The position numbers were made by a program, and so were the translations under genes. This document shows, piece by piece, positions 25,827 to 44,983 of a stretch of DNA of 64,000 nucleotides. The stretch comes from Nitrospirota bacterium (GTDB lineage Bacteria; Nitrospirota; Thermodesulfovibrionia; Thermodesulfovibrionales; SM23-35), in the NCBI GenBank assembly GCA_049323875.1, contig JBMOLW010000041.1, forward strand, positions 74,476 to 138,475, written 5' to 3'. The notes under the pieces were generated by a model. It was not told where the DNA came from and did no database searches. It saw only the letters and a program-made list of their open reading frames with translations. Positions within the stretch are counted from its first letter, which is position 1. The number at the start of each line of letters is the position of its first letter.

Positions 25827-26606
25827 TCACCGGTAAAGGGTTCCCTTCACCGGTATCACAAAATAACCGGGAGAGACTTTATAGTGCTCAAGCTGCGCGA
25901 GCAGAAACGGGTTTTCGAGAAATGACCTGCCCGGCATGATTTCCATGGCAAGGTCCATCACCGTATTCCGGACTACCCCTTTGAGTCTCGCAAAGACATC
26001 TTCTCCCTCGAGTGAAAGGGATACGATCCGTATCGTGTCACCCTGAATTTCCAGTGCCCCGGTAAGGGTATGGAACAGGTTCAAGGGCACCCGTCTGCCC
26101 GCATAGGTAGCAGGTTCTAAGCGGGCATCCCCTGAAGCGAACTCGGCATGACCGGTTGAATCATTAATCCTCAAGGTGCCGGACAGTCTGCCCCTGCCTG
26201 CGAGACCCATCCTTTTCAGGAATACGATCTCGCTGATGCTGACATCGTTGAGAGAACACGTTATCTGCTGGGTGTCCCTGGTAAATTCCATTCTGCCCGA
26301 AACAGCCCCGCCATATACTTCACCATCGAGCACCCCGCGCAGACTGAAGAAGAAGAGACTGAACGGGTAGACGCGGAGCGAGAGATTGCGGAACGTGACC
26401 AGTTCATGGCTGTCGCGCCTCAGGACTGCTGTGTCAATATCTATAGTATACAACAACCCTTTCTTCAGTCCATGCAGTTCAGCATTGATCCCGTGGGCTG
26501 CGAGGGAATCCTCTATAATGGCCTGGAGTGTGTCCGGGGAGAAAACAACCCATGGACCGCAGAGGATCAGGATCAGGGCGCATGCGAGGATAAGGAAAAG
26601 CTTCAC
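25827..26606 (-). CDS. gspN: Type II secretion system protein N (putative)
   Basis: 259 aa with an N-terminal TM. Positioned after gspM, with a GTGA overlap with it. Confidence 0.6.
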   Translation of the reverse strand: MKLFLILACALILILCGPWVVFSPDTLQAIIEDSLAAHGINAELHGLKKGLLYTIDIDTAVLRRDSHELVTFRNLSLRVYPFSLFFFSLRGVLDGEVYGGAVSGRMEFTRDTQQITCSLNDVSISEIVFLKRMGLAGRGRLSGTLRINDSTGHAEFASGDARLEPATYAGRRVPLNLFHTLTGALEIQGDTIRIVSLSLEGEDVFARLKGVVRNTVMDLAMEIMPGRSFLENPFLLAQLEHYKVSPGYFVIPVKGTLYR

Positions 26607-27106
26607 TTTGTCATCAGGAACGAAAGGGCAAGGGAAATATTCAAGAGCTCAGGATTCTCAAAAGACTTCTTGATAGTCACCTTTTTCATGACAAGCGGCA
26701 TGGGTGCGTTCTCGATCCTGTAAAGGATATTCACCATCTCATTCATGGTAACTTTCTCGAGAGAGAGATCGGCACCCTCTTCAAAACCGCCCCTGATCTC
26801 CTTCTTTCCTGTGGACTTCAGAGTTTTTACTGTATCTTTCAGTCCCATTGAACTGAAGGCTTCATCGACAGCCTGAACAATGCCCTGAGGAGCTGAAAGG
26901 CCCTTCCTGCTTTCTCCTGAATCTATCCTCTGTTTCAAAGAGAGGTATTCCTCCTTCAGCTGAAGCATCTCGTTCTGTTGTTCTTTGAGCATGGCCAGCT
27001 CTGTTCTGGCCGATGAGATCAGGTGCATTCCATAGAAGAGGAGGAGAAGAGCAACGAACAGGCCGCCAAGAAAAATCATCATTGTTTTGTCCTTGAAAAA
27101 TGCCAT
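26603..27106 (-). CDS. gspM: Type II secretion system protein M (putative)
   Basis: 167 aa, bitopic (TM IFLGGLFVALLLLFYGM) followed by a coiled coil. Positioned after gspL. Confidence 0.6.
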   Translation of the reverse strand: MAFFKDKTMMIFLGGLFVALLLLFYGMHLISSARTELAMLKEQQNEMLQLKEEYLSLKQRIDSGESRKGLSAPQGIVQAVDEAFSSMGLKDTVKTLKSTGKKEIRGGFEEGADLSLEKVTMNEMVNILYRIENAPMPLVMKKVTIKKSFENPELLNISLALSFLMTK

Positions 27107-28170
27107 CAGGATTTCCTCTCCCTCGCTGTTATGGTGAACAGCATCCCACTCGCCGCAGACGACTTGGAATCTGACAGGGCAACCCCGTCAAAAACCGGCT
27201 CCAGTCTGTCCTTCATCTTCTGTACCTCGCCCAGGGTCGGGGCTTCTCCTTTCAGAATCAGATTCTCCCTGTCCATGGTCATCTCATGAAAGACCACGTC
27301 TTGCCTGTCGATTTCCGAAATTGCAAGGATTGCGGCCAGAGGACTGATACCGAGAAATATCTCCTCGTCGGTTTTCAGTTCTTTCATATGGGATTTCATC
27401 TGATGGAGTTCATTCACGATATTCTTTTCTCCGGGGAAGACTTCCTGATACTCTTTTCGTATAGCATTTTTTACCGCTGCGATTTCCGAGCGGACAGAGA
27501 AAATATTCAGCAGGATGTCAGCAGCAAAAAACATCACGACAACCATGGCAAGGAGCGCAGTCAATCTCAGCGATCTCCGGGTCTTTTCGGTCTCCCGGGT
27601 GTATGCAAATTCATCCCTGCGGAGGTTGAGGACCGGAGACTTCATCTCTTCAAGAGCAACAGATATCCTTTCCTCTCCGTCCAACTCGCCCGGCCCGAGA
27701 AGTTTTTCCGGTGAAAAATCCCTGATAACTTTCCTGAGATCAAGAGACGTTATGCAGACCGGGTCGGCATTGTATGTCTTCAGTTTTTCCAGAAGGCCTC
27801 TGATAATTTTTTTACTCACATACACTGCGAGCACCTGGCTTGTGTTGCCGGAATCAGTGAGCGGGATGCAATCAAACACCACATTTTCAGATCCTTCGAG
27901 TATGATGTTGTCAAGTTCAAAGGGGAGCACGTCCCTCACCTTTTCCCGTTCTCCAAATGGCAGGTCCATGACCCGGAAATCGAGATTGCTCAGGGGAAGG
28001 CTTACATAGGTATTCTCAACAGCACCCGGAACAGGATCGATCGGAAAATCGTGGCTGCCTGAGCGGGGATAGACCTTGCTCTCCTTAAGAGTATAACCGC
28101 CCCTTCCTGAATCGAAGAGATAGGTTTCGATTTCAGAGTCTCTGATATCAAGAAAGAGCGCCGTTGCCAC
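27106..28170 (-). CDS. gspL: Type II secretion system protein L (putative)
   Basis: 354 aa with a cytoplasmic PilM/actin-like N-domain, one TM (LTALLAMVVVMFFAADILL) and a periplasmic C-domain. GTG start. Confidence 0.65.
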   Translation of the reverse strand: MATALFLDIRDSEIETYLFDSGRGGYTLKESKVYPRSGSHDFPIDPVPGAVENTYVSLPLSNLDFRVMDLPFGEREKVRDVLPFELDNIILEGSENVVFDCIPLTDSGNTSQVLAVYVSKKIIRGLLEKLKTYNADPVCITSLDLRKVIRDFSPEKLLGPGELDGEERISVALEEMKSPVLNLRRDEFAYTRETEKTRRSLRLTALLAMVVVMFFAADILLNIFSVRSEIAAVKNAIRKEYQEVFPGEKNIVNELHQMKSHMKELKTDEEIFLGISPLAAILAISEIDRQDVVFHEMTMDRENLILKGEAPTLGEVQKMKDRLEPVFDGVALSDSKSSAASGMLFTITARERKS

Positions 28171-29057
28171 TAATATTCCTTCCAGTATTCAATGAGATTG
28201 CCGTTGTGATCCCATACCGCTTCAATGATCCGTTTCACTCCTCCTGATGACGCTACCGACTTCACAGAAAATTGGCTGCTTTTCTCCATCAGGGCTATCG
28301 AGGTATCAGGCAATGAACCCGTGAATCTCTGAAAGTCCTCTCCCTTCAGGGGAACCACTTCCCTGTTGCGGACTATCTGCTCCGCTTCCTCTTCCGTAAC
28401 ATCCTCCGCAAGGCATCTCAGCACAGGGGTGCCGGCAGTGTTAATATTTATTTCAAGGTTCAATGCGCTCTTTCCAAAGACAGTAACATATGGCAATAAT
28501 GTATCATACTCTTCTTCCCCGATTCCATGCACCAGGAGAAGTTCGTCGATACTGACGAAATATGCGTTTTCTGCCCCGGTCTCCGAACCCGGCACTCTTG
28601 CCTCGCTGTCCCCGTCTATCCAGTCCGCAATTCTCCCGGCAATACGCTCATCAAGGTTTAAGATGGCCAGCAACCTCACAAATGCATCATAGGTATTCTT
28701 TTGGCCGTTGGGATAGACAAGGGTGTTGATGTTGAATTTGGCGTTTTCGTCCTCGATCCTGACCGTGACCGTCCCCTGGAAATCCTCGAAAGGATTTTCC
28801 ACAGGCATCTCCATAAAATTCTGTGTCGGTATCGCAGTTCCGGAACTCAGCACATTGGCAAGAAACGGCACTGATACGTTGATCCCTGATCTTGCCATGA
28901 GGGAGAGCCGCTGCGCATCCCGCCAGTTATAGAGATTATTCGTTCCCGTATAGACACCATAAGAGAATTCCACGACCATCGCAGTCAGGAGAACAAGGAC
29001 AAGAAGCGTGATAACCAGTGCCATGCCGTGCTGGTTGAAGCACACATTGTGTTTCAT
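28170..29057 (-). CDS. gspK: Type II secretion minor pseudopilin K
   Basis: Prepilin-like MKHNVCFNQHG|MALVITLLVLVLLTAMVVEF with a large GspK-size body. The track ORF extends to 29228, but that extension is a translation of REP copy b. Confidence 0.7.
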   Translation of the reverse strand: MKHNVCFNQHGMALVITLLVLVLLTAMVVEFSYGVYTGTNNLYNWRDAQRLSLMARSGINVSVPFLANVLSSGTAIPTQNFMEMPVENPFEDFQGTVTVRIEDENAKFNINTLVYPNGQKNTYDAFVRLLAILNLDERIAGRIADWIDGDSEARVPGSETGAENAYFVSIDELLLVHGIGEEEYDTLLPYVTVFGKSALNLEININTAGTPVLRCLAEDVTEEEAEQIVRNREVVPLKGEDFQRFTGSLPDTSIALMEKSSQFSVKSVASSGGVKRIIEAVWDHNGNLIEYWKEY

Positions 29058-29107
29058 CGTTTTCCTGGAAATCTCCCTTTCACACTGCATTACTTCTGAA
29101 TAACTGT

Positions 29108-29173
29108 CATTGTCCGGCTTGACCGGACAATCCAGTTTTTTTCTCTGGATTCCCCGATCAAGTCGGGGAATGA
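29108..29173. repeat. Bipartite double-hairpin REP-like element, copy b
   Basis: CATTGTCCGG-CTTGA-CCGGACAATCC, a 17-nt spacer, then GATTCCCCGA-TCAAG-TCGGGGAATGA. Lies between gspJ and gspK. Confidence 0.85.
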
Positions 29174-29224
29174 CTTTATGGACATTTATGCCCAAGTGAA
29201 GAGAGAACAAAGGAATCTTCTCCA

Positions 29225-29875
29225 TCATACCTGATTTCCTATCCTGGGTTTTGCGATATCATTGAGTGTAACCGTATGCCCCTTGATTCTCATGGTCAGG
29301 CCTATCCGTAATTCCCCGGGTTTCGTTTTGTTCACTGCCGCATCCCAGGTCCCCACCCAGGCATCCTGATATTTCGCCTCGATGCTGAACCCTTCAAGAT
29401 CTTCTATGATCTCAACTCCCTCTGTTTCTGCCCTCCCGTATGGTGATTCCATTTTTTTCAGGAGGCTCAGTTTCCCCTCTTTCTCTTCGACATAATACGA
29501 AATCCTTGAAAGCCCGGGGCGCAGAGCGGAGAATGCAGTGAAATCGAGCTGTGTGGTCTGTCTGCCGTAGACATCTCTGTCCTCAATCCGGAATACAGTA
29601 TGGGTTTTCTGTTCGTTCTGATATGCGGCTTCAAGTTCGCATCTAAGGATATCGATAGCTCTCCTTGCCTCCTGAAGTCTGGTCAAAGATTCATCCATTC
29701 CTTCCATTGCCCTGTAGCTCAGGAAAAATGTACTGTAAATCGCAACGAGGATTACGGAGAGGATTGAGACTGCGACAAGCACTTCCAGCAGCGTAAAACC
29801 CATTCGCTGTGACAGGAGAACCCCGGGCCTGTCCTGTCCACCGAAATGGCATAAAGAATCCGTCTTATTGATCAT
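29225..29875 (-). CDS. gspJ: Type II secretion minor pseudopilin J
   Basis: 216 aa with prepilin motif ..QRMG|FTLLEVLVAVSILSV. ATGA overlap with gspI. Confidence 0.7.
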   Translation of the reverse strand: MINKTDSLCHFGGQDRPGVLLSQRMGFTLLEVLVAVSILSVILVAIYSTFFLSYRAMEGMDESLTRLQEARRAIDILRCELEAAYQNEQKTHTVFRIEDRDVYGRQTTQLDFTAFSALRPGLSRISYYVEEKEGKLSLLKKMESPYGRAETEGVEIIEDLEGFSIEAKYQDAWVGTWDAAVNKTKPGELRIGLTMRIKGHTVTLNDIAKPRIGNQV

Positions 29876-30216
29876 TTGACCACAAACTCATTTAACTTCA
29901 CCTCTTCGCCGCCTGCGTTCACCACAACGATAATCTCCGACACCCCGGTATACGGGGAGGCCTTTACAAAAGTCTCATAGGAGTAATGTTCATACGGGGC
30001 ATCGAACTGCGCCTTGCCGGCAACAGGATCCTGTTCGAGATCCGCCATTTTGCTCCTTGCAAGCAGGGTTGCGACCGTTATAGTCTCCTGCCTCTCAATC
30101 AGCCCCAGTTGGTAATTAACGGTATAGATGAGGGTTACAAGCAGGCTGCCGACTATTGCCAGCGCAATCAGCACCTCAAGAAGCGTGAAACCCCTTTTTC
30201 CTCCTTCCTCCTTCAT
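29872..30216 (-). CDS. gspI: Type II secretion minor pseudopilin I
   Basis: 114 aa starting MKEEGGKRG|FTLLEVLIALAIVG. The start codon and SD lie inside the heptamer array. Confidence 0.75.
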   Translation of the reverse strand: MKEEGGKRGFTLLEVLIALAIVGSLLVTLIYTVNYQLGLIERQETITVATLLARSKMADLEQDPVAGKAQFDAPYEHYSYETFVKASPYTGVSEIIVVVNAGGEEVKLNEFVVK

Positions 30217-30272
30217 CCTTCCTCCTTCATCCTTCCTCCTTCATCCTTCATCCCTCATCCTTCATCCCTCGT
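30203..30272. repeat. Heptamer tandem array (CCTTCAT/CCTTCCT)x10 at the gspH-gspI junction
   Basis: Ten contiguous 7-nt units. The coding strand reads ATGAAGG/AGGAAGG. The array contains the gspH TGA stop (30255-30257) and the gspI ATG (30214-30216). Confidence 0.92.
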
Positions 30273-30725
30273 CTCTATCTTCACCCTGCCGCTCAGGTGG
30301 TTCAGCCTGACTGTCATCTGGCTTTCCCCCCTCGTCAGGTAGATAAAGAGGTCCTCCCGGGCGCCGAGAGGCTCAAACAGAAGAGTCAGTTCACCGCTCG
30401 ATACAAGCCCCCTGGATGGTATTTCGACTCCGGTGAGGTCATGAAAAAGCCGGGATTTCTTCCCTGCAGGCTCACTCCATGCCACCAGATTCTTCGTGAG
30501 ATCAAAGGTGAGGGAGAACGTCTCTTTTCTCGACACCGCATTGTCATTTACATATCTCAGGATTGAAGCCATCTCGCGTGCTTCAGCCCTCAGCCTGCTC
30601 TCTCCGAATCCGGTGAATGCAGGTAATATCACTGCCAGGACGACGGACAGGACAAAGAGCACTATGATCAGCTCGATGAGAGAAAAACCGGGGCTATTGC
30701 ATATCCCAGTTCTGGATATCCGCAT
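30255..30725 (-). CDS. gspH: Type II secretion minor pseudopilin H
   Basis: Prepilin motif MRISRTGICNSPG|FSLIELIIVLFVL. The ATG at 30725 has a purine-rich upstream region and is preferred over the track start 30761, which has no SD. Confidence 0.7.
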   Translation of the reverse strand: MRISRTGICNSPGFSLIELIIVLFVLSVVLAVILPAFTGFGESRLRAEAREMASILRYVNDNAVSRKETFSLTFDLTKNLVAWSEPAGKKSRLFHDLTGVEIPSRGLVSSGELTLLFEPLGAREDLFIYLTRGESQMTVRLNHLSGRVKIETRDEG

Positions 30726-31125
30726 CTTTCCCTTCCCCGCCCTCTTTTCCGTCTGCTCCATAGCTCAGGATATCAAAGTCGCCGTAGATACCGGGAGAGA
30801 TGTAGATATAGGGATTATTCCAGGGATCAAGCGGGATTTTTCTCTGTTCGAGATAGCCGCCTTCACGGTATTTCTCAGGTATCTGCCCGACAGCGGGCTT
30901 CTCGATGAGTGATTCAAGTCCCTGTTCAGTGCCCGGGTAAAACCCGTTGTCGAGCTTGAAGAGCTTCAGGGCAGTCTCAAAATTCTTTATCTGTACCTTT
31001 GCCTCTGCAATCCGTGCGTCGTCGGTCCGCCCGATGATCTTCGGCGCAACAATGGCAACGAGGAGACTGAGTATGAAAACCACGACAATAATTTCGAGCA
31101 GGGTAAATCCTTTCTTGTTTTTCAT
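30694..31125 (-). CDS. gspG: Type II secretion major pseudopilin G
   Basis: 143 aa starting MKNKKG|FTLLEIIVVVFILSLL. GspG core ..AKVQIKNFETALKLFKLDNGFYP..DPWNNPY. SD GGAGG. Confidence 0.93.
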   Translation of the reverse strand: MKNKKGFTLLEIIVVVFILSLLVAIVAPKIIGRTDDARIAEAKVQIKNFETALKLFKLDNGFYPGTEQGLESLIEKPAVGQIPEKYREGGYLEQRKIPLDPWNNPYIYISPGIYGDFDILSYGADGKEGGEGKDADIQNWDMQ

Positions 31126-31183
31126 GATTCCTCCGTTCTGGGTTCTCTATTACTAAGACGGCTATAACCAAGGAGACATCTGA

Positions 31184-31249
31184 CATTGCCCGACTTGATC
31201 GGGTAATCCAGAGGAAGGCAAAAGATTCCCCGGTCAAGCCGGAGAATGA
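31184..31249. repeat. Bipartite double-hairpin REP-like element, copy c
   Basis: CATTGCCCGA-CTTGA-TCGGGTAATCC, a 14-nt spacer, then GATTCCCCGG-TCAAG-CCGGAGAATGA. Lies between gspF and gspG. Confidence 0.85.
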
Positions 31250-31274
31250 CGAACAGACAAGCTTCTGTCGCCAT

Positions 31275-31400
31275 ACTAATGACCGCATTAGTAACTGTCC
31301 GGTATAGTCCTTGAGCGGCTTTATCTCCCGAATGCGTTCGGGAGATACCTCGGAGGGCGATAGCCCGAGAATGAGCGAAAGTACTATACCGGACAGTTAT
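31275..31400. other. Highly structured element (three-way-junction-like) between gspF and gspG
   Basis: Perfect 15-bp closing stem ACTGTCCGGTATAGT (31294-31308) / ACTATACCGGACAGT (31383-31397). It encloses hairpins ATCTCCCGAA-TGCG-TTCGGGAGAT and CTC..GGGC-GATA-GCCC-GAG. An adjacent hairpin ACTAATG-ACCG-CATTAGT sits alongside. Confidence 0.45.
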
Positions 31401-31408
31401 TCGTATGC

Positions 31409-32584
31409 TCATTTGATCAACTGGTTCAACTGGAATATCGGAAGCAGGACCGCAAGCACGATGAGTCCAACCAGAAATCCCATGCAGAGAATCATCGCCG
31501 GTTCAAGCAGCGAAAGGGCTTTGTCAACCCTGCGGGAGAACTCCTCCTCGTAAGAATGTGCGGCATTTCTGAGAACCTCTGCCAACTGTCCGCTCCTTTC
31601 TCCGGTTGAAATCAGCTGGAGGAGTACCGGGGGAAAACCATCGAGCGATGCAGAAAGCCGGGCACCCTCTGACACCCGCTTTCCGGCATCCAGAACGTTC
31701 ATCTCAATCACTTTGTTCCCGATCGATCTTGCGGAAAGCTCAAGGGCATTCAGCATGGGAAGCCCCCCCTCAAGAAGGAATGACAAGATCCGGGCGAAAC
31801 GCCCGAAATAGAGGCTCTGGAGAATATTGCCCGGGATACGCAATACCACCCTGTCGACAAAGGCACGTTTCTTCTCCCTGAGGTCCCTGAGGAAATAGAG
31901 ACCACTGAGAAGCAAGCCCATAAGGACCCACCAGGAGCGCTGAAAAACATCACTCACCCAGATGAGTATCACGGTAAGCAAGGGGAGCGCGCTCTGGGTG
32001 TCCTGGTATATTCTGGTGATTTTCGGCATCACAAAGGCGAAGAGAAAAGAAAGCACGATAAAGCTTATGCAGATCATAAAAACAGGGTAGATCATCGATG
32101 TCCTAACTTTGGATTTCAGGCTGTCCTGGGACTCGAGAAAATCGGCGATACGGATGAGGATAGTATCGAGATTTCCGCTCGCCTCACCTGCAGCGATCAT
32201 ATTGATATAGAATTCAGGAAAAATTTTTGGATATTCCTCCAACGCTTTCGAGAAATTTGACCCTGCGGCAATTCGTTCCCGTATGTCCACCAGCATGGTT
32301 TTCCAGAAACCTTTCTGCTCGTCTGAGAGTGACCTGAGCGCTTCAAGGAGGGGTACGCCGGAGGAGAGAAGGGTTGATAATTGCCGCGTTACGGAGGGCA
32401 GAAGGGCTGAGTCGTTTCTGCTGAACAGGGAAAACCGTCTTGTTCCCGAAACCCCTTCCACGTTTCTCGGATAGAGCCCTGACTCTTTGAGCCTGAGCAC
32501 TGCGTCCTTCCTGCTTGCTGCCTCGATCGTTCCCGTTGCCTCGGAACCGTCAGCCCTGTATCCCTTATAGTGAAATATCGGCAT
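31409..32584 (-). CDS. gspF: Type II secretion system inner-membrane platform protein F
   Basis: 391 aa with two GspF/PilC-type repeats and three TM segments. Confidence 0.92.
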   Translation of the reverse strand: MPIFHYKGYRADGSEATGTIEAASRKDAVLRLKESGLYPRNVEGVSGTRRFSLFSRNDSALLPSVTRQLSTLLSSGVPLLEALRSLSDEQKGFWKTMLVDIRERIAAGSNFSKALEEYPKIFPEFYINMIAAGEASGNLDTILIRIADFLESQDSLKSKVRTSMIYPVFMICISFIVLSFLFAFVMPKITRIYQDTQSALPLLTVILIWVSDVFQRSWWVLMGLLLSGLYFLRDLREKKRAFVDRVVLRIPGNILQSLYFGRFARILSFLLEGGLPMLNALELSARSIGNKVIEMNVLDAGKRVSEGARLSASLDGFPPVLLQLISTGERSGQLAEVLRNAAHSYEEEFSRRVDKALSLLEPAMILCMGFLVGLIVLAVLLPIFQLNQLIK

Positions 32585-34085
32585 AATCTTTCTGGGTTAC
32601 CCGCAGGACTTCTTCAAGGGTTGTAATCCCCTGTATCACCTTCTCAAGTCCGTCCTGGCGGAGCGTTTTCATACCCTGCGAAACTGCCTGGCTCTTGATC
32701 CTCTGGGAGTCCATCCGGTCGGTGATCATGGGACGTATCTCGCTGCTGATCTCGAGCAGTTCGAAAATGCCCAGCCTCCCGAGATATCCCTTTCCCTTGC
32801 AGGTATCACATCCCTGCCCCCTGAAAAGAGCCCGGGGAGGTTCCGGGAAATATGAGCGCTCACTCTCCGACGGGGCATAGGCTATCTTGCACCGGGGGCA
32901 GATCGTACGCACCAGCCTCTGCGCAAGCACAAGGGCAAGTGACGAAGCAACGAGGAAGGGCTCGATACCCATGTCTATGAGCCTCACCAGTGCGCTCGGT
33001 GCATCGTTTGTATGAAGGGTGCTGAGAACAAGATGACCGGTAAGCGATGCCTGCATGGCTATTTCAGCCGTTTCGAGGTCTCTTATCTCTCCGACCATGA
33101 TCACGTCAGGGTCCTGCCTCAGAATAGACCTCAGCCCCGAGGCAAAGGTAAGTCTTATTTTAGGGTTCACCTGAACCTGTCCGATGCCTTTCAGCTGATA
33201 TTCGATCGGGTCCTCAACCGTGATAATATTTTTTTCTTCCGTATGAATCCTGTTGAGCGCAGCGTAGAGGGTCGTCGTCTTCCCGCTCCCGGTGGGACCC
33301 GTAACCAGGATGATACCATCCGGCCTTTTCAGATGCTCCTCCATCTTTTTTTCGTCATCCCTGCTGAACCCGACCTCCCAGAGCCCCAGCAGACCCTGTT
33401 TCCTGTCAAGGAGCCTCAGCACTGCCCTCTCGCCATGAGATGCAGGGATGACCGATACCCTGATATCGATATCCCTTCCACCGAGAAGAAGGCGTATCCT
33501 CCCGTCCTGCGGAAGCCTCTTTTCAGCAATGTCGAGGTTCGCCATGATCTTGATCCTGCTGATTAATGCATCCTGGATAATTTTCGGCGGGGTCAGCACC
33601 CTGTGGAGCACCCCGTCTATTCTCAGTCTCACATCGAGCTCTTTCTCATACGGCTCGATGTGGATATCACTTGCACGCTCTTTTACCGCCTGGAGCAGAA
33701 GTGCGTTGAGGAGCCGGATTATGGGGGCCTCTTCGGTCAGTTCGAGCAGGTCTTTCGGTGCTTCGAATTCAGTCGCAACAGAAGAGAGGTCTTCTCCGGC
33801 AATGGTATCCATAACCTCCTCTGCCGAACCCATCTGCCCGTAGAACCTGTTGATCGCATCGAGGATGACCCCTGCACTTGCCCTGACGGGTTTGGGCTTC
33901 AATCCCAGCGTCTTCGCGACTTCAGAAAGCGCAAGCACTCCCCTGTCGTCGGCAACGGCACAGAGGAGATCCGCGTTATCCTGCCTGATAGGGAAGATCT
34001 GGTTGTTCTTTACAAAGGCGAGGGGGATATTCCTGAGAAGAACGGCTTCAACATCCTCATCTCTTATGGCATCAATTTTTTCCAT
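32565..34085 (-). CDS. gspE: Type II secretion system ATPase E
   Basis: 506 aa with Walker A GPTGSGKTT, Asp/His boxes, and the zinc motif CPRC..CDTC. Confidence 0.95.
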   Translation of the reverse strand: MEKIDAIRDEDVEAVLLRNIPLAFVKNNQIFPIRQDNADLLCAVADDRGVLALSEVAKTLGLKPKPVRASAGVILDAINRFYGQMGSAEEVMDTIAGEDLSSVATEFEAPKDLLELTEEAPIIRLLNALLLQAVKERASDIHIEPYEKELDVRLRIDGVLHRVLTPPKIIQDALISRIKIMANLDIAEKRLPQDGRIRLLLGGRDIDIRVSVIPASHGERAVLRLLDRKQGLLGLWEVGFSRDDEKKMEEHLKRPDGIILVTGPTGSGKTTTLYAALNRIHTEEKNIITVEDPIEYQLKGIGQVQVNPKIRLTFASGLRSILRQDPDVIMVGEIRDLETAEIAMQASLTGHLVLSTLHTNDAPSALVRLIDMGIEPFLVASSLALVLAQRLVRTICPRCKIAYAPSESERSYFPEPPRALFRGQGCDTCKGKGYLGRLGIFELLEISSEIRPMITDRMDSQRIKSQAVSQGMKTLRQDGLEKVIQGITTLEEVLRVTQKDYADISL

Positions 34086-34092: not shown

Positions 34093-36369
34093 TCATTGTA
34101 TCTTCATGATATAGTTGGGCTCTGCATATTCCACCTCTTTATAGCTCATAAAAATCCTGACCGCGTCCTTCACATCCCGGCCCTCCTTCACCAGTATCCG
34201 GTAGAGTCCTTTCGGCTTCAAAGGAGACTCGACAGCAGCATCCTCCCGGGAGAGTATCTCAGCGATCCTCTCCTCTGAAGTCCCCTCTCTGAATTTTACG
34301 AGCAACTCGCCCTCTTTATATCTTTCCTCCATCCTTGCAAATTGCAACTGTTTTTCACCGGTCAACTTATCGAGCTGCTCAGGTTCTCTCACAATATGGG
34401 GAGTCAGGAATATGAGCAGGTTAGTCTTCTTTTTCTCCACAGATTTGTTCTTGAACAGCCAGCCCAGCAGGGGGATATCGCCGAGGAGCGGCATCTTGTT
34501 CACAGTCTCTTCCTCCCGCTCTTCCATGAGTCCCCCGATTACCACGGTCTGGTTATCCTTGACAACAACAGAGGTTTTTGTCGAGCGTTTCGTTGTTGTA
34601 GGCCCCACAGTGAGCACCACGGTGGTTGATTCCTGCTTCAGGGCTGATATCTCTTCATAGATGTCGAGTTTCACATGGTTCCCTTCCGTAATCTGCGGGG
34701 TGATTCTCAGCGTAATCCCGACGTCTTTCCTCTCGATCGAGGTGAAGACTGATTGAGGCCGTGCAGGATCGGATTCTTTCTGTGCGATGAACGGCACATT
34801 CTCTCCCACGATGATTTCTGCTTCCTTGTTGTCAGAGGTCAGGATCTGCGGGGTGGAAAGGACGTTCACTGCGTCCTTGAACTCGTTCAGGCTGAAAAGC
34901 GCTGCAAACCCGGGCACAGTCAGAGTTGAAGTCACAGCAGTTCCGTCCGTGCCGATCGTCGTAATCGGGACATCGAGAAAATTCCCCATACCGCCGGCTG
35001 TCATTCCGGTGAGTCCGTAGAGAATTCCCTGCATGGAGGTGGCATCGATCTGACCGAAACCTCCGACCGCAACCGGCTCTCCGTCCTTTTCAGCGATGAT
35101 CCGCCACTTGGAGCCGAGTTCCTGCAACCTGTCTATCGAGGCTTCAACGATCATCGCCTCTACGTATACCTGCCTTCTCTTCCTGTCAAGCTGTTTGATG
35201 ACCTGGACAAGGTTCTGGTAATCTGAAGGAGAGGCTACAATAACAAGAGAATTGGTCGCCTTGTCCGGTGAGATAATAACCCTGCCTCCCGGCTCGAAGG
35301 GGCTCTTCTGTTGCTGGCTCTGCTGACCTGTCTGTCCTGTCCTTGCCTGTGCTGATATCCCCGTTATCATGGAATCAAGCACCTTGGAGAGTTCAGTTGC
35401 GTCCGCATATTCAAGGAAATAGACGTTGATCTTGCTTATTGCATCAGGAAGCGGGATATCGAGGAGAGAAACAATCCGCTTCATGGCCTCTTTTTCCTGC
35501 TTGTCTGCAATCATGATAACGGCATTCAGCCTCGTGTCTGCAAAAACCGTTGATTTGGATTCCTCAACAGACGCCGCCGGCACGGTTTCGCCCGGCCTCA
35601 GCGCCCTCATTGCAGCGGGTTGCCCCTTGCTGCTCAGGACCAGTGTCTCGGTCAGGATCTTCACCACATCTTCCGCATTTGCATATTTCAGGAGAACAAG
35701 CTCAGGCTCCTCTATGCCCGGCTTGTCTATGGTTTCAAGGATCTCGAGCATTCGCTGGACATTCGTTGCAGAGTCGACCACCATGAGCATATTCCCCGGG
35801 CCGAAGGATGAGATATGCCCGTCCCGCGAGACAAGGGGCTGGAGGAAATTCATCGCCTTTGCAGAAGAGATCGCGCTCAGTTGTATCAGTCTTGTGATGT
35901 ACGCATCGCTCACCGGCACACCCTCGTCCGTCTGGAGTTCGGTTCCTGTCTGCCTTGCCTGGGTGGTCGGCACGATCTTATATACTTTTCCGGACGGTAT
36001 AATGGTAAACCCCTTCAGTTCCAGTACTGAAGTGAAAAGGTGGAATGCATCATCCACCGAAAGCCTGGATGGCGCGATGATGGTTATCGTACCCTTCACT
36101 TTCTCATCGAAGACGAAGTTCTTGCCTGTTACTTCGCTGATGAACTTCACCACGACCGGGATATCCACGTCTACAAAGTTGAAGGCTACTTTCTTCTCCT
36201 TACCCTGGCTTTCTTGTTTTTCGGTCGGGGAGGTTTCTCCATACAGGGATGAAATAGGAAGGATGAAGGATGAAATGAGAAACAGGAGAAGGATGAAGGA
36301 TGAAGGATGAAGGATGAAACGTGAACTAACAGAAGAACGAAGGTTGAAGGATGAAAATTTATTCCTCAT
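34093..36369 (-). CDS. gspD: Type II secretion system secretin D with C-terminal S8-propeptide-like domain
   Basis: 758 aa with a repeat-encoded signal peptide, N0-N3 domains and a secretin core (VVIGGLMEE..PLLGDIPLLGWLF). The last 75 aa (YKEGELLVKFREG..VEYAEPNYIMKIQ) resemble the neighbouring protease propeptides. Confidence 0.93.
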   Translation of the reverse strand: MRNKFSSFNLRSSVSSRFILHPSSFILLLFLISSFILPISSLYGETSPTEKQESQGKEKKVAFNFVDVDIPVVVKFISEVTGKNFVFDEKVKGTITIIAPSRLSVDDAFHLFTSVLELKGFTIIPSGKVYKIVPTTQARQTGTELQTDEGVPVSDAYITRLIQLSAISSAKAMNFLQPLVSRDGHISSFGPGNMLMVVDSATNVQRMLEILETIDKPGIEEPELVLLKYANAEDVVKILTETLVLSSKGQPAAMRALRPGETVPAASVEESKSTVFADTRLNAVIMIADKQEKEAMKRIVSLLDIPLPDAISKINVYFLEYADATELSKVLDSMITGISAQARTGQTGQQSQQQKSPFEPGGRVIISPDKATNSLVIVASPSDYQNLVQVIKQLDRKRRQVYVEAMIVEASIDRLQELGSKWRIIAEKDGEPVAVGGFGQIDATSMQGILYGLTGMTAGGMGNFLDVPITTIGTDGTAVTSTLTVPGFAALFSLNEFKDAVNVLSTPQILTSDNKEAEIIVGENVPFIAQKESDPARPQSVFTSIERKDVGITLRITPQITEGNHVKLDIYEEISALKQESTTVVLTVGPTTTKRSTKTSVVVKDNQTVVIGGLMEEREEETVNKMPLLGDIPLLGWLFKNKSVEKKKTNLLIFLTPHIVREPEQLDKLTGEKQLQFARMEERYKEGELLVKFREGTSEERIAEILSREDAAVESPLKPKGLYRILVKEGRDVKDAVRIFMSYKEVEYAEPNYIMKIQ
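36247..36355. repeat. GGATGAA heptamer arrays within the 5' end of gspD
   Basis: GGATGAA units at 36247, 36261, 36268, 36291-36318 (4 perfect) and 36349. The coding strand reads TTCATCC, giving SRFILHPSSFILLLFLISSFILPISS. Confidence 0.9.
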
Positions 36370-36734: not shown

Positions 36735-36761
36735 TTTCCTCCCTGTTTTTTCTGTCTTTAC

Positions 36762-36792
36762 TTCCTCCTTCATCCCTCACCATTCATCCTTA
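36762..36792. repeat. Short heptamer array (TTCCTCC/TTCATCC) between gspC and the four-helix-bundle gene
   Basis: TTCCTCC TTCATCC CTCACCA TTCATCC, in inverted orientation relative to the 36247-36355 arrays. Confidence 0.8.
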
Positions 36793-36796: not shown

Positions 36797-37672
36797 TTAT
36801 CGTATCTGATACGTCATGGTCATCCGTGCGCCTGACCGGATCATGTCAATCTGCACCCTGTCAAGACCTTTCAGCGCATTGAATGCCTGCAGCGCCCTGT
36901 CAGGATTCGAAATATCGTATTCGTTGATCCGAAGCAGCACATCACCGTCCTGGAGACCCAGACTGTGGTAGATCCCCCCGGGTTTCACTTCACTCAGGAC
37001 GAACCCCTCCTCCCTGCCGTTCACCACGTTCGGCCTGAGCCGTGCATCGGTCATCATCTGGGCCGGATTCGCAATTGCATGCTGGAGTCTGTTCTGATCA
37101 ACGACATATAACCCCCTCCCTACTCTCTGGGCAAATGCAGAAAGCTGAGGACTGCCTGCAGCGACCGGGCTGCTGATCTCTTTTATGGTAACGTCATCGA
37201 GGGGGATTTCGATCTCCCTGCCCCCCTGTATAAGCAAGACCTTTTCTTTTTCGACACGGGAGAGTTTCCCGGCTCCAAAGACTGATTCGCCGAGCTTGAA
37301 TACATCCTGCAGCCCTGTCCTGTCCCTGAATATTCCGAAGGTCATCTCCTTCGGGCCAACTACTGTGCCGACCAGTGCGATATCCGCCGGACCTGCCTGA
37401 CTTCCGGAAGAAGCGGCCAGGAGCTTCAGTTCCCCGCCAGGGAAACCGAAAGGATTGTTCGCAAGGATACGGGCATACTCTGTGAATTGGGTCTTGTGCA
37501 TTTCCGGCTGTTTACCGGCAGTCGAAAGGGATTCTGTCCTTGAGGCCTTTCCCTGTGCGAAATACAGCGTCAGGGCATCCCTGACCAGAAAAAGAGTCGC
37601 TAACACAAGGAGGATGCCGAGACAGACATTCAGAAAGAAAATAGTTCTCTTTGTCAGAAGTCCTGAGTTCAA
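36797..37672 (-). CDS. gspC: Type II secretion system protein C (PDZ domain)
   Basis: 291 aa with an N-terminal TM, an HR-like region and a C-terminal PDZ (GFVLSEVKPGGIYHSLGLQDGDVLLRIN). TTG start, and the only start available. Confidence 0.8.
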   Translation of the reverse strand: MNSGLLTKRTIFFLNVCLGILLVLATLFLVRDALTLYFAQGKASRTESLSTAGKQPEMHKTQFTEYARILANNPFGFPGGELKLLAASSGSQAGPADIALVGTVVGPKEMTFGIFRDRTGLQDVFKLGESVFGAGKLSRVEKEKVLLIQGGREIEIPLDDVTIKEISSPVAAGSPQLSAFAQRVGRGLYVVDQNRLQHAIANPAQMMTDARLRPNVVNGREEGFVLSEVKPGGIYHSLGLQDGDVLLRINEYDISNPDRALQAFNALKGLDRVQIDMIRSGARMTMTYQIR

Positions 37673-37912: not shown

Positions 37913-40015
37913 TTAACTCCTCCGCCTTCTTATGAGCGCGAGAGCTATCGCAGGCATGAGCAGCATCAGGACATCTGCACATGCAGTAGGGATATTCTGT
38001 GGTCCTCCGACAGAACATCCTCCGCTTCCACCCGACTTTCTCTGACCACCGCTCGGCGTAAGGGTAGTTGCAGAAATCTCATTCGAATATGCGGAGTATC
38101 CTGCAACCGGATTAAACGCTCTCACCCTGTACCAGTAGGTTGTAGCCGGACTGAGGCCTGAATCAGGAAAGGTAGACACGTTCTGGCCGACCTGTCCCAC
38201 CTGGATAAAATCATCGTTCACGGTACGTCTCTCGATCAGATATTCCTGCTCAGTTGACGAGTTGTCCGACCAGGCGAGCTGGATCTGGGAACTGGAGGTT
38301 GTAACCACCCTGAGATTCGTCGGCGGGTTGATTGGGGTCACCTGGGATATCTGAGTTCCCTGCTGGAGCGGGGATTCTCCGATATCATTATAGGCACTTA
38401 CCCGGTAATAATATCTCGTCCCGTCGGTCAGGCCTGCATCCGCGTAAAAATTGCCATTTACCCCTACCGTGGCTACCTGCACATAGTTGATCCCGTCTGT
38501 TCCCCGGTAAATCCTGTAGCCGGTTTCATCCGTAGCGCGGTCTGTCCATGCCAGATCAATCTGCAACGCGGAAACCGGGGTCGCACTGAGGTCATAGGTT
38601 GCCCACAGGGATTTCAGGGACCGGTCTGCGTTGATCCTTCCTCCTGTGAGAATCCAGCCGTTCAGGGTGTCGAGCACATCGACATATCTCAGCACCATAG
38701 TCTTGATCTGGCCGTGGGTAAAATGAGCATAATATGCGCTTAACAAACCTGCAAGACCGGTTACATGCGGGGCTGACATGGAAGTGCCTGAGAACATCTC
38801 CAGATGGCCGTATCCGTAATACTGGGTCCACCAGTTCGGCACGGTGCTGAAAATATAGGTTCCCGGCGCAGCCACATCAACAGATGTGGGGCCGAAATTG
38901 CTGAAAGAAACTCTCCTGTCGTCCTGGTCAGTCGCTGCGACAGAGATGATATTCGGCAGGTCGTAGCTTGCAGGATACATCGGCATGGCATCATTATTGT
39001 CCCCGACCCCGTCACTCCCGCCATTTCCGGCAGAGGCTACATAAAGGAGCCCTGCAACATTTGCCCGGTCTATAGCCTGATATTCAGCAGCGGAATAATT
39101 CCCCCCGCCGAAACTTGCGTTCATAACTCTGACGTTCACCCCGTGGTTGTTTTTCATATCGATAGCGTAATCGATGGCAGCGATTTCGTCCCCGACATCA
39201 CAGGAACCGTTCACATCACACACCTTGAGCGCCATCATGTTCGTCAGCCACATAATGCCCGCGATGCCTGCGCTGTTATTCCCTTTCGCCCCGATGACTC
39301 CTGCCACGTGCGTGCCATGTCCATAGTCGTCCATCGGGTCGCTGGTGTTGTCCACAAAATTCCAGCCCATGCAGTCGTTCAGGTATCCGTTGCCGTCATT
39401 GTCAACCGCGTCGGTACAACTTGTTTCTCCGAGGTTTCTCCATACATTCCAGACAAGGTCATTATGGCTGTAATCGATGCCCGTATCGAGCACCGCAACC
39501 GTCACGTCACCGCTTCCGATGGTCACATCCCAGCCTTCCGCCATTTTACTGTCAGCGCCTGCTGTCCCATACGCATACTGACCGGTGTTCCATAACGCCC
39601 ACTGGTTCGGGAAATACGTATCGTTCGGTATTATGATGTTCAGTTTTCTTATATAGTTCGGTTCTGCATATTCAACATCCTGGCTCGCCATATACTGCAT
39701 GACTGCGTCTTTGAGAGAAAGCCCCTGGGGCAGTTTTACCTGAGTGAGGTTCTTGATTGTGGAATAGTTCCTCACTACCGTTGCCCCGACTGCCTGATGC
39801 ACGGCAGCAGACGATGCAGCCTTGACGCCTGATCTGAATTTTACGAGCAGTTCGCCTTCCCGGTAATCCCCGTTCTCCATCTGTTCGATGACGGACTGGG
39901 CTGAGAGCTTGATGCTGCCGGAGGACCCTGATGTATCTGAAGAGATGTTGGTGGAAGACTGGCTGCCGCAGGCGGCAAGAAACATACATATCATTAAATA
40001 TAAATATTTCCTCAT
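37913..40015 (-). CDS. S8 (subtilisin-like) serine protease: lipobox, propeptide, two FN3, Cys-containing C-terminal tag
   Basis: Lipobox MFLAAC and propeptide YREGELLVKFRSG..VEYAEPNYIRK. Catalytic triad AVLDTGI, HGTHVAG, SGTSMSAPH. Two FN3 domains. Tail GGSGGCSVGGPQNIPTACADVLMLLMPAIALALIRRRRS. Confidence 0.93.
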   Translation of the reverse strand: MRKYLYLMICMFLAACGSQSSTNISSDTSGSSGSIKLSAQSVIEQMENGDYREGELLVKFRSGVKAASSAAVHQAVGATVVRNYSTIKNLTQVKLPQGLSLKDAVMQYMASQDVEYAEPNYIRKLNIIIPNDTYFPNQWALWNTGQYAYGTAGADSKMAEGWDVTIGSGDVTVAVLDTGIDYSHNDLVWNVWRNLGETSCTDAVDNDGNGYLNDCMGWNFVDNTSDPMDDYGHGTHVAGVIGAKGNNSAGIAGIMWLTNMMALKVCDVNGSCDVGDEIAAIDYAIDMKNNHGVNVRVMNASFGGGNYSAAEYQAIDRANVAGLLYVASAGNGGSDGVGDNNDAMPMYPASYDLPNIISVAATDQDDRRVSFSNFGPTSVDVAAPGTYIFSTVPNWWTQYYGYGHLEMFSGTSMSAPHVTGLAGLLSAYYAHFTHGQIKTMVLRYVDVLDTLNGWILTGGRINADRSLKSLWATYDLSATPVSALQIDLAWTDRATDETGYRIYRGTDGINYVQVATVGVNGNFYADAGLTDGTRYYYRVSAYNDIGESPLQQGTQISQVTPINPPTNLRVVTTSSSQIQLAWSDNSSTEQEYLIERRTVNDDFIQVGQVGQNVSTFPDSGLSPATTYWYRVRAFNPVAGYSAYSNEISATTLTPSGGQRKSGGSGGCSVGGPQNIPTACADVLMLLMPAIALALIRRRRS

Positions 40016-42042: not shown

Positions 42043-42076
42043 CGTATCCTCCAAAGACAATAATTGCTTGTCTTTT

Positions 42077-42766: not shown

Positions 42767-44983
42767 TCATGGTTTCTCAACAATCCGGGGTGTGATGAAG
42801 ATCAGCAGTTCGCTCGTCGATATTTGTTCTTTCTTCGACTTGAACAGCCATCCCAGAACAGGGATATTCATCAGTCCCGGAACTCCGCTTTCGGACTCAT
42901 TCGTCGTAATTTTATACATTCCGCCGATGACAATAGTCTCGCTGTCCTTGATAATAACATTGGTAGTAGCCTCTTTTTTATCAGTCCCGGGCACCCCTTC
43001 AACCGAGGGCACAGTCGGATCGAGTTCTTCTTTCTTCACTTCGATCATCAGCGCGATGGACTTGTCCGGGGTTATATGAGGCGTTACATTCAGTTCAAGG
43101 GTAACGTCCTTGAATTCAGTGGAGACCGTACCTTCTGTAGTCAGCTTTCGTACGGGGATGCTCTTGCCCTGGAGGATCTTCGCCCTGCCGTTGTCCACAG
43201 TAAGGATCTTGGGATTCGAGACCACCTTGAGCTTGCCCATTGTCTCTATTGCACTGAGCTGGAGGTCCAGTCCTATTGTCCGTGAGGGGTCCAGTATCCC
43301 GAAAGTAATGCCGGAACCCGACAACGGGCCGACGCTTTTTGCCGGGAGGTCCACCATATAATTTCCGCCGGTAACCGGCCCTGCAGACGTGTTGGGCACC
43401 CCTGATAATCCCCCCAGGGAACTGAGGCCGTTCGGCGACACCATGTTCAGACCCCACTGGATGCCCAGCTCAGAGGTATTGTCACTGTTGATCTCCACTA
43501 TCCTTGCTTCAACAAGTACCTGTGGGGTCGGTTTGTCGAGTGTAGCAAGGATATTCTCAATCTCAGGGAATACTTTGGCGACATCTTTAACAAAGAGCGT
43601 GCTCGTCCGTTTATCCACATTGAGACTGCCTCTCGGGGACAATATCTTTGCGTTCCTTATGGCAGCGTCCACCAGAGCGACCTCTGCATAACTCACATTG
43701 AAGACGCGGGTTTCGAGCGGTTCTGCCTTCATTTCCGCTTCCTTGACCTTTGCCTTGTCTTCACTTTCCCTCGCGAAAACCGAATGGGGCGCGATCCTGA
43801 TAATATTCCCCTGGATATCTTTGTCGAGGCTGAACGTCTTCAAAATAGTGTCAAGTGCCTGGATCCAGGGAACGTCCCTGAATTTCATGGTAGCCTTGCC
43901 CTTGACGTCAGGGTGTATGAAGAGGTTGCATCCGCTGATGTCTGCAAACAGCCGGAGGATCGGCACGATATCCTGATCCTGGAAATCAAAATTCACTGTC
44001 TCTTTCCCTGCAAGATATGCCTCGCACCTTGTCCCTGCCAGTTTCTCGTGAGGCGGCATGGTCTCGGGCATTGCCTCTCCATACTTCTCTTCTGAGACTG
44101 CCTCTTCAGCAGGGAATCCCGCAGGCTCAGGTTCACTCCTCCTCAGGCTGATCACGATCGAGTCAGCGATTGAAGCGACATCGAAGTTGGTCTTCTCCTG
44201 AAGATCGAGAACAAGCCGGACCTTATCGTCGTGTTTGCCTGAACGCATCCCCTTGACAGGGGAAACCACAGAAACCGGGATCAGGGCATTCAGCGTCACG
44301 TCAGGGATATCAATCACCAGACGGTCTTCCAGGGGGAAGACATTCGGGATCATGGAACCGTTCCCTTTAATCAGCACATTCACGGTATCAGCAGTGGGTT
44401 CGAAGGAGATCTCGTTGATCTCGGTAGCCTTCGGCAGGGGTTCCCGCATTACCGGCGGCGTGGTTTCTTCAATCCTTCTCACCTGTACTTCGGGGACATG
44501 CGCTGCCTTTTTTGCTGCTTCTTCCCTGACCCTGATCGTCAGAACATTATTGTTGTAATCCTGATCAACTGAAGCTGGCGACTGGAGCAGCATTTCAAGC
44601 CGCGCTATGAGGGTAGGGGATTCGATCTGTGAGGGGGTTATTTCTGAAATGCCGGGCTTCCGGGAAATAATCTTCTCATTGAAGGTTCCCAGGGAAACAT
44701 CAGGCATGTCGACTACAATCTTATACGGGTCTCCCGGTTTATAAATGGTATAGATAAACGGTTTGTTTGCCGTCACCGTAACCATATTATCCTGTACATT
44801 GATGCCGGTAATGGCCGCGGGTTCATCCATCCGCATCGTTTCTTTGCCACTTCCTTGTGTCCCTGCACAACCGGCAATCAGGGAACAGACGAGCAGGAAA
44901 GAAAAGACGGAGAAAAAGAACAACGCTCCGCCGTGTTTTTTATCCCTCAATTTTTGTTTATCGAGTATAAAATTCTGATTCAT
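42767..44983 (-). CDS. pilQ: Type IV pilus secretin PilQ
   Basis: 738 aa with lipobox LIAGC, AMIN-like repeats, N0-like FDFQDQDIVPILRLFADISG, and a secretin core IVIGGMYKI..VPGLMNIPVLGWLFKS. Confidence 0.9.
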   Translation of the reverse strand: MNQNFILDKQKLRDKKHGGALFFFSVFSFLLVCSLIAGCAGTQGSGKETMRMDEPAAITGINVQDNMVTVTANKPFIYTIYKPGDPYKIVVDMPDVSLGTFNEKIISRKPGISEITPSQIESPTLIARLEMLLQSPASVDQDYNNNVLTIRVREEAAKKAAHVPEVQVRRIEETTPPVMREPLPKATEINEISFEPTADTVNVLIKGNGSMIPNVFPLEDRLVIDIPDVTLNALIPVSVVSPVKGMRSGKHDDKVRLVLDLQEKTNFDVASIADSIVISLRRSEPEPAGFPAEEAVSEEKYGEAMPETMPPHEKLAGTRCEAYLAGKETVNFDFQDQDIVPILRLFADISGCNLFIHPDVKGKATMKFRDVPWIQALDTILKTFSLDKDIQGNIIRIAPHSVFARESEDKAKVKEAEMKAEPLETRVFNVSYAEVALVDAAIRNAKILSPRGSLNVDKRTSTLFVKDVAKVFPEIENILATLDKPTPQVLVEARIVEINSDNTSELGIQWGLNMVSPNGLSSLGGLSGVPNTSAGPVTGGNYMVDLPAKSVGPLSGSGITFGILDPSRTIGLDLQLSAIETMGKLKVVSNPKILTVDNGRAKILQGKSIPVRKLTTEGTVSTEFKDVTLELNVTPHITPDKSIALMIEVKKEELDPTVPSVEGVPGTDKKEATTNVIIKDSETIVIGGMYKITTNESESGVPGLMNIPVLGWLFKSKKEQISTSELLIFITPRIVEKP

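Follow-up and report, generated by a model that had tools for sequence, protein, structure and literature searches.

Why should the outer-membrane channel of a type II secretion system (T2SS) end in a domain otherwise met at the front of proteases? The question is raised by gspD, the secretin gene of a T2SS operon in a stretch of 64,000 nucleotides from a Nitrospirota bacterium (GenBank assembly GCA_049323875.1, contig JBMOLW010000041.1, positions 74,476 to 138,475 of the forward strand; this whole stretch is hereafter the window). Two genes for lipoprotein subtilases of the S8 family, which we call S8-1 and S8-2, bracket this operon, and the C-terminal tail of GspD resembles the N-terminal prodomains of both. 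The original prediction, made from the DNA letters and their translations, had noticed this likeness and suggested that the tail might dock, chaperone or inhibit the secretin's own protease cargo.

A prodomain homologue at the end of a type II secretin

Evaluating the 758-amino-acid (aa) product, we found it to be a complete, bona fide type II secretin GspD, because it scores well above the cutoff of the NCBIfam model TIGR02517 (GspD; 548 bits against a cutoff of 351, residues 63–670) and has the corresponding Pfam architecture of N0 (63–132), three Secretin_N domains and Secretin (498–661). Beyond this core, residues 676–752 match PF22148 (Fervidolysin_NPro-like, the fervidolysin N-terminal prodomain) with an E-value of 1.8e-12 and 47.9 bits against a cutoff of 21, and the match covers positions 7–81 of the 81 in the profile. 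Direct comparison by BLASTP gave 43% identity to the S8-2 prodomain over 75 aa (E 5e-16) and 36% to that of S8-1 over 70 aa (E 2e-12), a similarity far beyond chance. The 75-aa C-terminus quoted in the original prediction is thus located where it was said to be, with the open reading frame (ORF) 34093..36369 on the minus strand ending exactly there, and both prodomain stretches that had been aligned to it are present in their ORFs; the domain limits needed adjustment, in that the C-terminal location stands but the start lies about 8 residues further upstream, giving a true span of 676–758.

The tail is a propeptide homologue and not a propeptide, because it is not upstream of an S8 catalytic domain and is not autocleaved: by Pfam, GspD has no S8 domain, and the tail lies at the secretin C-terminus. 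It directly follows the Secretin domain, which agrees with the earlier placement of the fusion at the usual position of the pilotin-binding S-domain, a domain that is not universal among secretins. A single helix (residues 663–680), predicted by AlphaFold2 (AF2), intervenes between barrel and tail, and an alignment of 33 tails shows a conserved motif, LTPHI...K..F, at this linker; from its position and the model the helix is possibly a remnant of an S-domain helix.

To characterize the fold, we modelled GspD residues 655–758 with AF2 from the 33-sequence alignment, resulting in a mean predicted local distance difference test score (pLDDT) of 75, with values of 81–93 across most of the domain core and 76 in one block. 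After the linker helix the model runs, in the numbering of the modelled fragment, through strand 34–39, helix 45–54, strands 58–63 and 68–72, helix 79–87 and strand 92–97, a β-α-β-β-α-β order. Searching the PDB with this model in Foldseek ranked subtilase prodomains first, namely 3whi (pro-subtilisin E), 8c4x_B (PAM protease prodomain), 1spb_P (the subtilisin BPN' prosegment, with a template-modelling score of 0.72 normalised to the target), 1scj_B and 1r6v (fervidolysin, 26% identical to the tail), while lower ranks held furin-bound PC1/3 prodomains, POIA1 (1itp) and ORF2 of the Aeromonas ASP protease (3wqb_B, E 0.096). The earlier suggestion of an I9/fervidolysin-type prodomain is borne out by the PF22148 match, the AF2 fold and the subtilase propeptides retrieved by Foldseek, and an I9-like fold is present in the model. 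When the 33-tail alignment was used as a profile against PDB sequences, nothing significant was returned (best E 0.076, unrelated), and even fervidolysin was missed because the profile is too narrow.

Spread and age of the fusion

Among the 120 best full-length homologues listed (66–87% identity, from many independent assemblies), PF22148 accompanied the secretin domains in all 120, and those with names were Nitrospirota or Thermodesulfovibrionales. Searched with phmmer against 1.84 billion representatives, the tail also retrieved more distant GspD proteins that carry it; with one of these, P0192, as the query, PF22148 was present in another 120 of 120 listed homologues, about 30 of which also carried SPOR (PF05036). 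For a species-level view, we surveyed 80 GspD loci, one genome per species, using custom hidden Markov models (HMMs) for the secretin core, the tail, the S8 prodomain and the S8 catalytic domain, revealing the tail in 77 loci (in-frame in 76 and on a split ORF in one, L080), with one further locus cut by a contig end (L059) and two lacking it (L073, L079). The tail-bearing set includes complete chromosomes, and carriers fall in Nitrospirota (Thermodesulfovibrionales, Sulfobium, Dissulfurispiraceae and the Magnetobacterium group) and in some Desulfobacterota (Syntrophales, Desulfobacteraceae). The expectation that the fusion would recur in related GspD homologues is therefore well supported (240/240 listed proteins, drawn from two Nitrospirota clades, and 77/80 species-level loci), and an assembly chimera, which the original prediction had named as a way for it to fail, is not borne out.

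As a negative control, PF22148 was found in 0 of 120 listed members of the sister GspD clade to which the tail-less L079 belongs (Deltaproteobacteria, Thermodesulfobacteriota, Methylomirabilis), and PilQ, the type IV pilus secretin that serves as an internal control in the window, has no tail, its Secretin domain ending at residue 736 of 738. In a codon comparison with the closest relative, the ratio of nonsynonymous to synonymous substitution rates (dN/dS) was 0.13 for the tail and 0.05 for the core, with dS near saturation. We conclude that this is a genuine and old fusion, specific to its clade and maintained by purifying selection.

As to its origin, a neighbour-joining tree of 261 domains (79 columns) placed 79 of 89 GspD tails in one clade without any N-terminal S8 prodomain, the other members being only short fragments, stand-alone proteins and two copies that come from the C-termini of S8 proteases. 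Tails of the window's clade have a mean identity of 41% to the tails of other clades, compared with 36% to their local S8 prodomains. Since the tails cluster together and show more identity to one another than to the S8 prodomains near them, the tail appears to have been acquired once, long ago, in the ancestor of a large Nitrospirota/Syntrophales GspD clade, and not copied from its present neighbours. Recent capture from S8-2 is ruled out by the same clustering and identity comparison.

The searches and the survey also returned variants of the domain in other settings. In L080 (Nitrospiraceae UBA9159, 10378–10822) gspD is truncated and the tail is encoded by a short ORF of its own immediately behind it, through either a frameshift error or a natural split. 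Other GspD relatives (P0122, P0125, P0192, P0157; L026, L033, L038, L040, L045, L053, L060, L063) have a tandem prodomain-like pair or an acidic/Pro-rich extension of 180–330 residues, and many of these post-tail extensions end in a peptidoglycan-binding SPOR domain. Stand-alone proteins of ~100–140 aa (P0130, P0131, P0134, P0138, P0142, P0156 and others) combine a signal peptide or lipobox with a prodomain-like domain; most stop 6–7 residues past a Glu-Pro-Asn (EPN) motif discussed below, +6 being the most frequent end, and the domain tree places about a dozen of the 63 with the GspD tails. These proteins are likely free periplasmic or surface inhibitors of bacterial subtilases. Finally, three S8 proteases (P0149, P0152, P0169) possess a normal N-terminal prodomain and a second copy at the extreme C-terminus, which is preceded by a 'CFIATAAYG' box and a hydrophobic region and stops a few residues past EPN, and several such 'S8Cterm' copies fall within the larger clade of the domain tree that holds all GspD tails.

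The cap motif, the P1-like ending and what the tail may do

In complexes of subtilisins with their propeptides, the sheet of the propeptide lies against two helices on the enzyme surface, which are capped by an acidic pair that ends the last propeptide strand (Glu69/Asp71 in BPN', Glu209/Asp211 in PfSUB1), and the residues past the cap run through the substrate cleft to P1 (Tyr77 in BPN', Asp217 in PfSUB1), such that P1 is the second cap residue plus six (D71 to Y77 in BPN'; D211 to D217 in PfSUB1 Prodp9); the stand-alone inhibitor SUB1-ProM has E146-x-N148 at the cap position (PMC6993865). The GspD tail has E750-P751-N752 as its putative cap, within an A-E-P-N that is invariant across the 33 aligned close-relative tails, with E-P-N kept in most of the wider set. 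Aligning the tail with the BPN' prodomain in hhalign (21 columns, E 0.086) set Y-A-E-P-N-Y-I on Y-V-E-E-D-H-V in the same register, a result that we use as a concordant register and not as evidence of homology.

Counted in this register, N752 plus six is Q758, the P1 equivalent, and there GspD ends, with its stop codon (34093–34095) directly after. Among the 120 close homologues listed, 54 stop at +6, 50 at +9 and 10 at +16, and among the 64 species-level tails retaining the motif, 27 (42%) stop at +6 and 49 within +13. The endings of those 27 are themselves patterned, with P4 hydrophobic in 21, P3 K/R in 19, P2 hydrophobic in 26 and P1 Q/K in 22. The window's own ending, YIMKIQ, closely resembles the YIRKLN that ends the S8-2 prodomain, and both neighbouring proteases follow their cap with six residues (YIRKLN in S8-2, YLVRKA in S8-1) before (I)PND opens the mature domain 1–3 residues later, the S8-2 junction reading EPN-YIRKLN then IIIPND. 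On these features the tail looks like a complete, already 'cleaved' prodomain, as one would expect if it acted in trans as a product-like ligand at the active site of a subtilase.

The data establish that the tail is homologous to prodomains and shares their fold, that purifying selection has conserved it over a long time, and that it keeps the cap motif and the P1-equivalent end. We tentatively read it as a periplasmic, trans-acting prodomain mimic that would bind S8 proteases and keep them inactive near the secretin, a proposal to which we give somewhat less than an even chance. Its topology, binding, inhibition and role in secretion are what we infer. By analogy with solved secretins, whose S-domain is found on the outside of the barrel wall in the periplasm, the tail may be present in multiple copies (~15) on that wall, just under the outer membrane. 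There it would bind the catalytic domain of PF22148-type S8 proteases in trans, like a cognate propeptide, with its β-sheet resting on the two helices at the protease surface, E750 and N752 as their caps, and the free hexapeptide Y753–Q758 sitting in the S6–S1 subsites in the manner of a cleavage product. Until their export, proteases would accumulate at the secretin in an inactive state; in the lineage studied here they would be the two operon-bracketing lipoproteins with Gly-rich/hydrophobic/basic tags, which would also reside beneath the outer membrane. The outcome would be protection of the periplasm and the secretion machine and, possibly, an easier hand-over to the channel. A more demanding version, in which the secretin is a built-in, cargo-specific receptor as well as inhibitor, with ~15 mimics per channel capturing mature S8 lipoproteins by their active-site face and release coupled to export, we consider doubtful. 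The invariant E-P-N among close relatives and the P1-equivalent end favour, without proving, binding, chaperoning or inhibition of the protease.

Several observations weigh against the prodomain-mimic proposal. The Foldseek E-values are modest (2e-3 to 0.1); such values are expected for a 75-residue ferredoxin-like fold, and the ranking of subtilase propeptides obtained with the model is nevertheless unambiguous and agrees with the HMM match. The BPN' alignment that fixes the cap and P1 register is statistically weak. A barrel-exterior position is off the known T2SS cargo route into the channel. The tails are not especially similar to the S8 prodomains beside them. In 15 of 64 species the domain is internal, with 26–328 further residues after it, often including SPOR, or is duplicated, so not every tail has a free C-terminus at P1. 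The domain persists in the Magnetobacterium group and some Syntrophales even though their EPN motif has degenerated. Lastly, when 10-kb flanks around gspD were checked, only 9 of the 32 loci with complete flanks, every one of which carries the tail, had an S8 gene there; the 9 belong to the window's clade, and the other 23 had none. With partial loci included, a nearby S8 gene was found in 13 of 80, all among the 20 closest GspD matches, and at the chromosome locus L081 of the SPOR clade there was no S8 gene near gspD. Within these flanks, co-occurrence of the tail with tagged S8 neighbours, as the original prediction had envisaged, is thus confined to the window's own clade, whose T2SS operon is bracketed by S8 genes.

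The main rival is that the tail is a structural or assembly module, an S-domain substitute or extension that would serve multimer stability, peptidoglycan spacing or a pilotin-like partner with no protease interaction, and we regard this as possible, if on balance unlikely. It would account for a tail far more widespread than S8 synteny, as in the 23 fully flanked loci without a nearby S8 gene, for the many relatives that continue into a long linker and the peptidoglycan-binding SPOR domain or carry two tandem copies, for the persistence of the domain where EPN has decayed, and for the position directly after the barrel, where a pilotin-binding S-domain would stand. What it does not predict is the quantised length and the substrate-like hexapeptide ending at P1, and it sits poorly with a surface-exposed E-P-N that is invariant in the 33 close relatives and kept in most of the wider set, with the clustering of stand-alone secreted or lipoprotein homologues with the +6 ending among the tails, and with the role of the known stand-alone proteins of this fold, which inhibit proteases (PMC6993865).

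A less probable alternative, which we would rate as quite improbable, casts the tail as a trans-acting foldase or activation switch that folds S8 domains or displaces the lipid-anchored prodomain, freeing the protease at the export site. Prodomains of this fold are intramolecular chaperones (PMC6993865), the model matches ORF2 (3wqb_B), the external chaperone of a propeptide-deficient Aeromonas subtilase, and both S8 prodomains in the window lie directly behind the lipobox Cys, such that removal of the prodomain would detach the enzyme from its lipid anchor. However, S8-1 and S8-2 already have complete prodomains and do not obviously need an extra foldase, the ORF2 match is weak, and the sequence data do not separate prodomain exchange from simple inhibition. 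The remaining idea, an assembly chimera or a recent local capture from the neighbouring S8 gene, could point to the 43% identity of an S8-2 prodomain encoded only ~1.5 kb away, yet it has next to no likelihood given a fusion found in independent assemblies (all listed homologues of both queries, and 77 of 80 species-level genomes including complete chromosomes), a continuous reading frame with gspE beginning 8 nt past the gspD stop, tails that group with each other apart from N-terminal S8 prodomains (79/89) and are nearer each other than local prodomains, and a tail dN/dS of 0.13, and it is effectively refuted by the comparative data.

The operon, its proteases and their relation to known systems

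On the minus strand the genes run pilM, pilO, pilQ; a Big_1/PKD lipoprotein gene; S8-2; gspC; a gene of the 23S-rRNA-intervening-sequence family; gspD; gspE; gspF to gspL; gspN; and S8-1 (Table 1). The ORFs for GspC with its PDZ domain, GspE, GspF, the pseudopilins, GspL (GspL_C) and GspN all lie on the same strand as gspD. By Pfam labels, the arrangement S8, gspC, gspD–gspN, S8 is identical in L082, a 72%-identical relative; an S8-1 orthologue occupies the same position in L002, L003, L008, L011 and L082, and orthologues of S8-2 keep both its synteny and its C-terminal tag. From this synteny it is reasonable to take S8-1 and S8-2 as putative cargo of this T2SS.

Table 1. Positions of gspD, its tail and associated features in the window
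Feature	Position	Strand	Basis and remarks
gspD, type II secretion secretin, prodomain-like tail included	34093..36369	-	758 aa; TIGR02517 and Pfam
GspD prodomain-like tail, residues 676–758 (~83 aa)	34096..34344	-	PF22148; AF2 model; Foldseek; dN/dS 0.13
Predicted linker helix, residues 663–680, from secretin barrel to tail	34330..34383	-	AF2 helix 9–26 of the modelled fragment, pLDDT 61–65
E750-P751-N752, putative helix-capping motif, counterpart of Glu69/Asp71 in the BPN' propeptide	34114..34122	-	Invariant in 33 aligned tails
C-terminal hexapeptide Y753-I-M-K-I-Q758, corresponding to P6–P1 in a cleaved propeptide	34096..34113	-	Cap+6 register
gspC with PDZ	36797..37672	-	PF11356 T2SSC and PF00595 PDZ
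gspE	32565..34085	-	Starts 8 nt past the gspD stop
Rest of the T2SS operon: gspE, gspF, gspG, gspH, gspI, gspJ, gspK, gspL, possible gspM, gspN	25827..34085	-	
gspN, Leptospira-type	25827..26606	-	TIGR04411, 92.6 bits against a cutoff of 50
S8-2 subtilase lipoprotein	37913..40015	-	Lipobox FLAAC, PF22148 41–120, S8, two fn3, GGC/hydrophobic/RRRRS tag
S8-2 prodomain, residues 41–125; closest relative of the GspD tail in the window	39641..39895	-	BLASTP 43%
S8-1 subtilase lipoprotein, 767 aa, just downstream of gspN	23513..25816	-	LAFAGC, PF22148, S8 with insertion, fn3, GGC/hydrophobic/RRKG tag
S8-1 prodomain, residues 55–125	25442..25654	-	PF22148 55–121, E 1.2e-12; BLASTP 36%
PilQ, type IV pilus secretin, internal control in the window	42767..44983	-	TIGR02515, 377 bits

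Both S8 proteases carry a lipobox directly before the prodomain and a C-terminal tag of the form GGGGC-S/A-I/V-G...Q/P...hydrophobic...RRR(R/K), features shared by orthologues in L002, L003, L007 and L009–L012. The only model match of this tag is JDVT-CTERM, sub-threshold at 19.9 bits against a cutoff of 27, and no sorting enzyme for it was found among the window ORFs scanned (about half of those of at least 200 aa). In S8-1 an insertion of ~180 residues interrupts the catalytic domain, which shows up as two HMM segments, the first ending at ~390 and the one with the Ser motif starting at ~576, and the orthologues in L002, L008 and L011 share this split.

Other features of the neighbourhood include a 133-aa PF05635 gene (23S-rRNA-intervening-sequence family, four-helix bundle; 36372–36773, minus strand) between gspC and gspD, which is absent at the corresponding position in L082, and a 655-aa Big_1 and PKD lipoprotein (40126–42093, minus strand) between pilQ and S8-2. 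This lipoprotein, whose place in L082 is taken by a Big_1 protein, may likewise be exposed at the surface or associated with the T2SS. About 3.5 kb beyond S8-1, at 18582–19967 (minus strand), lies the gene for a HAF-repeat/DUF3466 protein. The heptanucleotide TTCATCC/GGATGAA occurs in ten tandem copies in the part of gspD that encodes the signal peptide (36247–36318) and in ten further copies at the gspH/gspI junction (30198–30267), and a related GGATGAG repeat is present in 4.4 copies at 10237–10267; orthologous GspD signal peptides contain the peptide motif 'FILHPSSF' in varying copy number. This repeat could be a phase-variation switch, because slippage of a 7-nt unit in a coding region shifts the frame, or a lineage-specific repeat element.

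Set beside known systems, the GspD tail shares with the N-terminal propeptides of subtilases (MEROPS I9; PF22148, 1R6V; BPN' and subtilisin E, 1SPB, 1SCJ, 3WHI) its family, the β-α-β-β-α-β fold, the E-x-N/D cap and the six-residue run to P1; those propeptides, however, are N-terminal to a protease and autocleaved, whereas the tail stands at a secretin C-terminus with a genetically encoded free end. Stand-alone inhibitors (Pleurotus POIA1 1ITP, yeast PBI2, Arabidopsis SPI-1, Toxoplasma MIC5, Plasmodium SUB1-ProM) have the same fold and act in trans, and SUB1-ProM has an E-x-N cap like that of the tail and a gene that adjoins subtilase genes (PMC6993865). They differ in being free small proteins, whereas the tail is covalently fused to the subunit of a multimeric channel and is likened to them by sequence and fold. 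ORF2 of Aeromonas sobria (ASP, 3WQB chain B) offers a separately encoded, propeptide-like subtilase partner in a Gram-negative periplasm, to which the tail has a weak structural match (E 0.096); it is the external chaperone of the propeptide-deficient ASP protease (reference listed in PMC5638518). Unlike the tail, ORF2 is soluble and serves a protease with no propeptide of its own, whereas the S8 proteases of the window have their own prodomains.

Among secretins, the canonical T2SS members with a pilotin-binding S-domain (PulD/PulS, GspD/AspS) have in common with the window's GspD the N0-N1-N2-N3-secretin core and the operon context. Accessory modules known in secretins include AMIN (as in the window's PilQ), AMIN or SH3_3 (in sister-clade GspD), SPOR and the pilotin-binding S-domain, whereas that of the window's GspD is a protease-prodomain homologue. 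On the cargo side, the window's S8 proteases, with a lipobox and a Gly-rich/hydrophobic/basic tag and genes flanking a T2SS with GspN and a PDZ-bearing GspC, recall the surface proteases and lipoproteins of other T2SSs (VesB with GlyGly-CTERM and rhombosortase; PulA; a GspN-requiring lipoprotein of A. baumannii). GlyGly-CTERM directs the Vibrio cholerae protease VesB to the cell surface via the T2SS (PMC6219818) and GspN-dependent lipoprotein cargo is known (PMC12802150); the S8 tag has the same tripartite layout as the GlyGly-CTERM of VesB and differs in containing a Cys.

The original prediction knew of no described secretin with such a fusion, and our full-text literature search agrees, having returned no description of a secretin with a protease-prodomain module; the combination of secretin and PF22148 is visible in the precomputed Pfam annotations of hundreds of database proteins. 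T2SS recognition of folded cargo is still poorly defined, and no universal signal for it is known. A secretin displaying a homologue of its presumed cargo's inhibitor domain would, if the proposal is right, be a concrete protein–protein interaction at the channel, and if the doubtful receptor-and-inhibitor version were true, this would be the first T2SS with a substrate-recognition element fused to its outer-membrane channel, giving a defined binary interaction for cargo selection. The propeptide-like protease inhibitors known so far are free proteins in fungi, plants and apicomplexans, together with one Aeromonas chaperone, and the repertoire would then extend to a fusion with a membrane machine. 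If the tail is instead purely structural, a protease prodomain fold would have been recruited as a secretin accessory domain replacing the pilotin-binding S-domain. The fusion is pervasive in the environmentally important, largely uncultured Thermodesulfovibrionia/Nitrospirota and found in some Syntrophales, and it bears on how these organisms deploy proteases at their surface.

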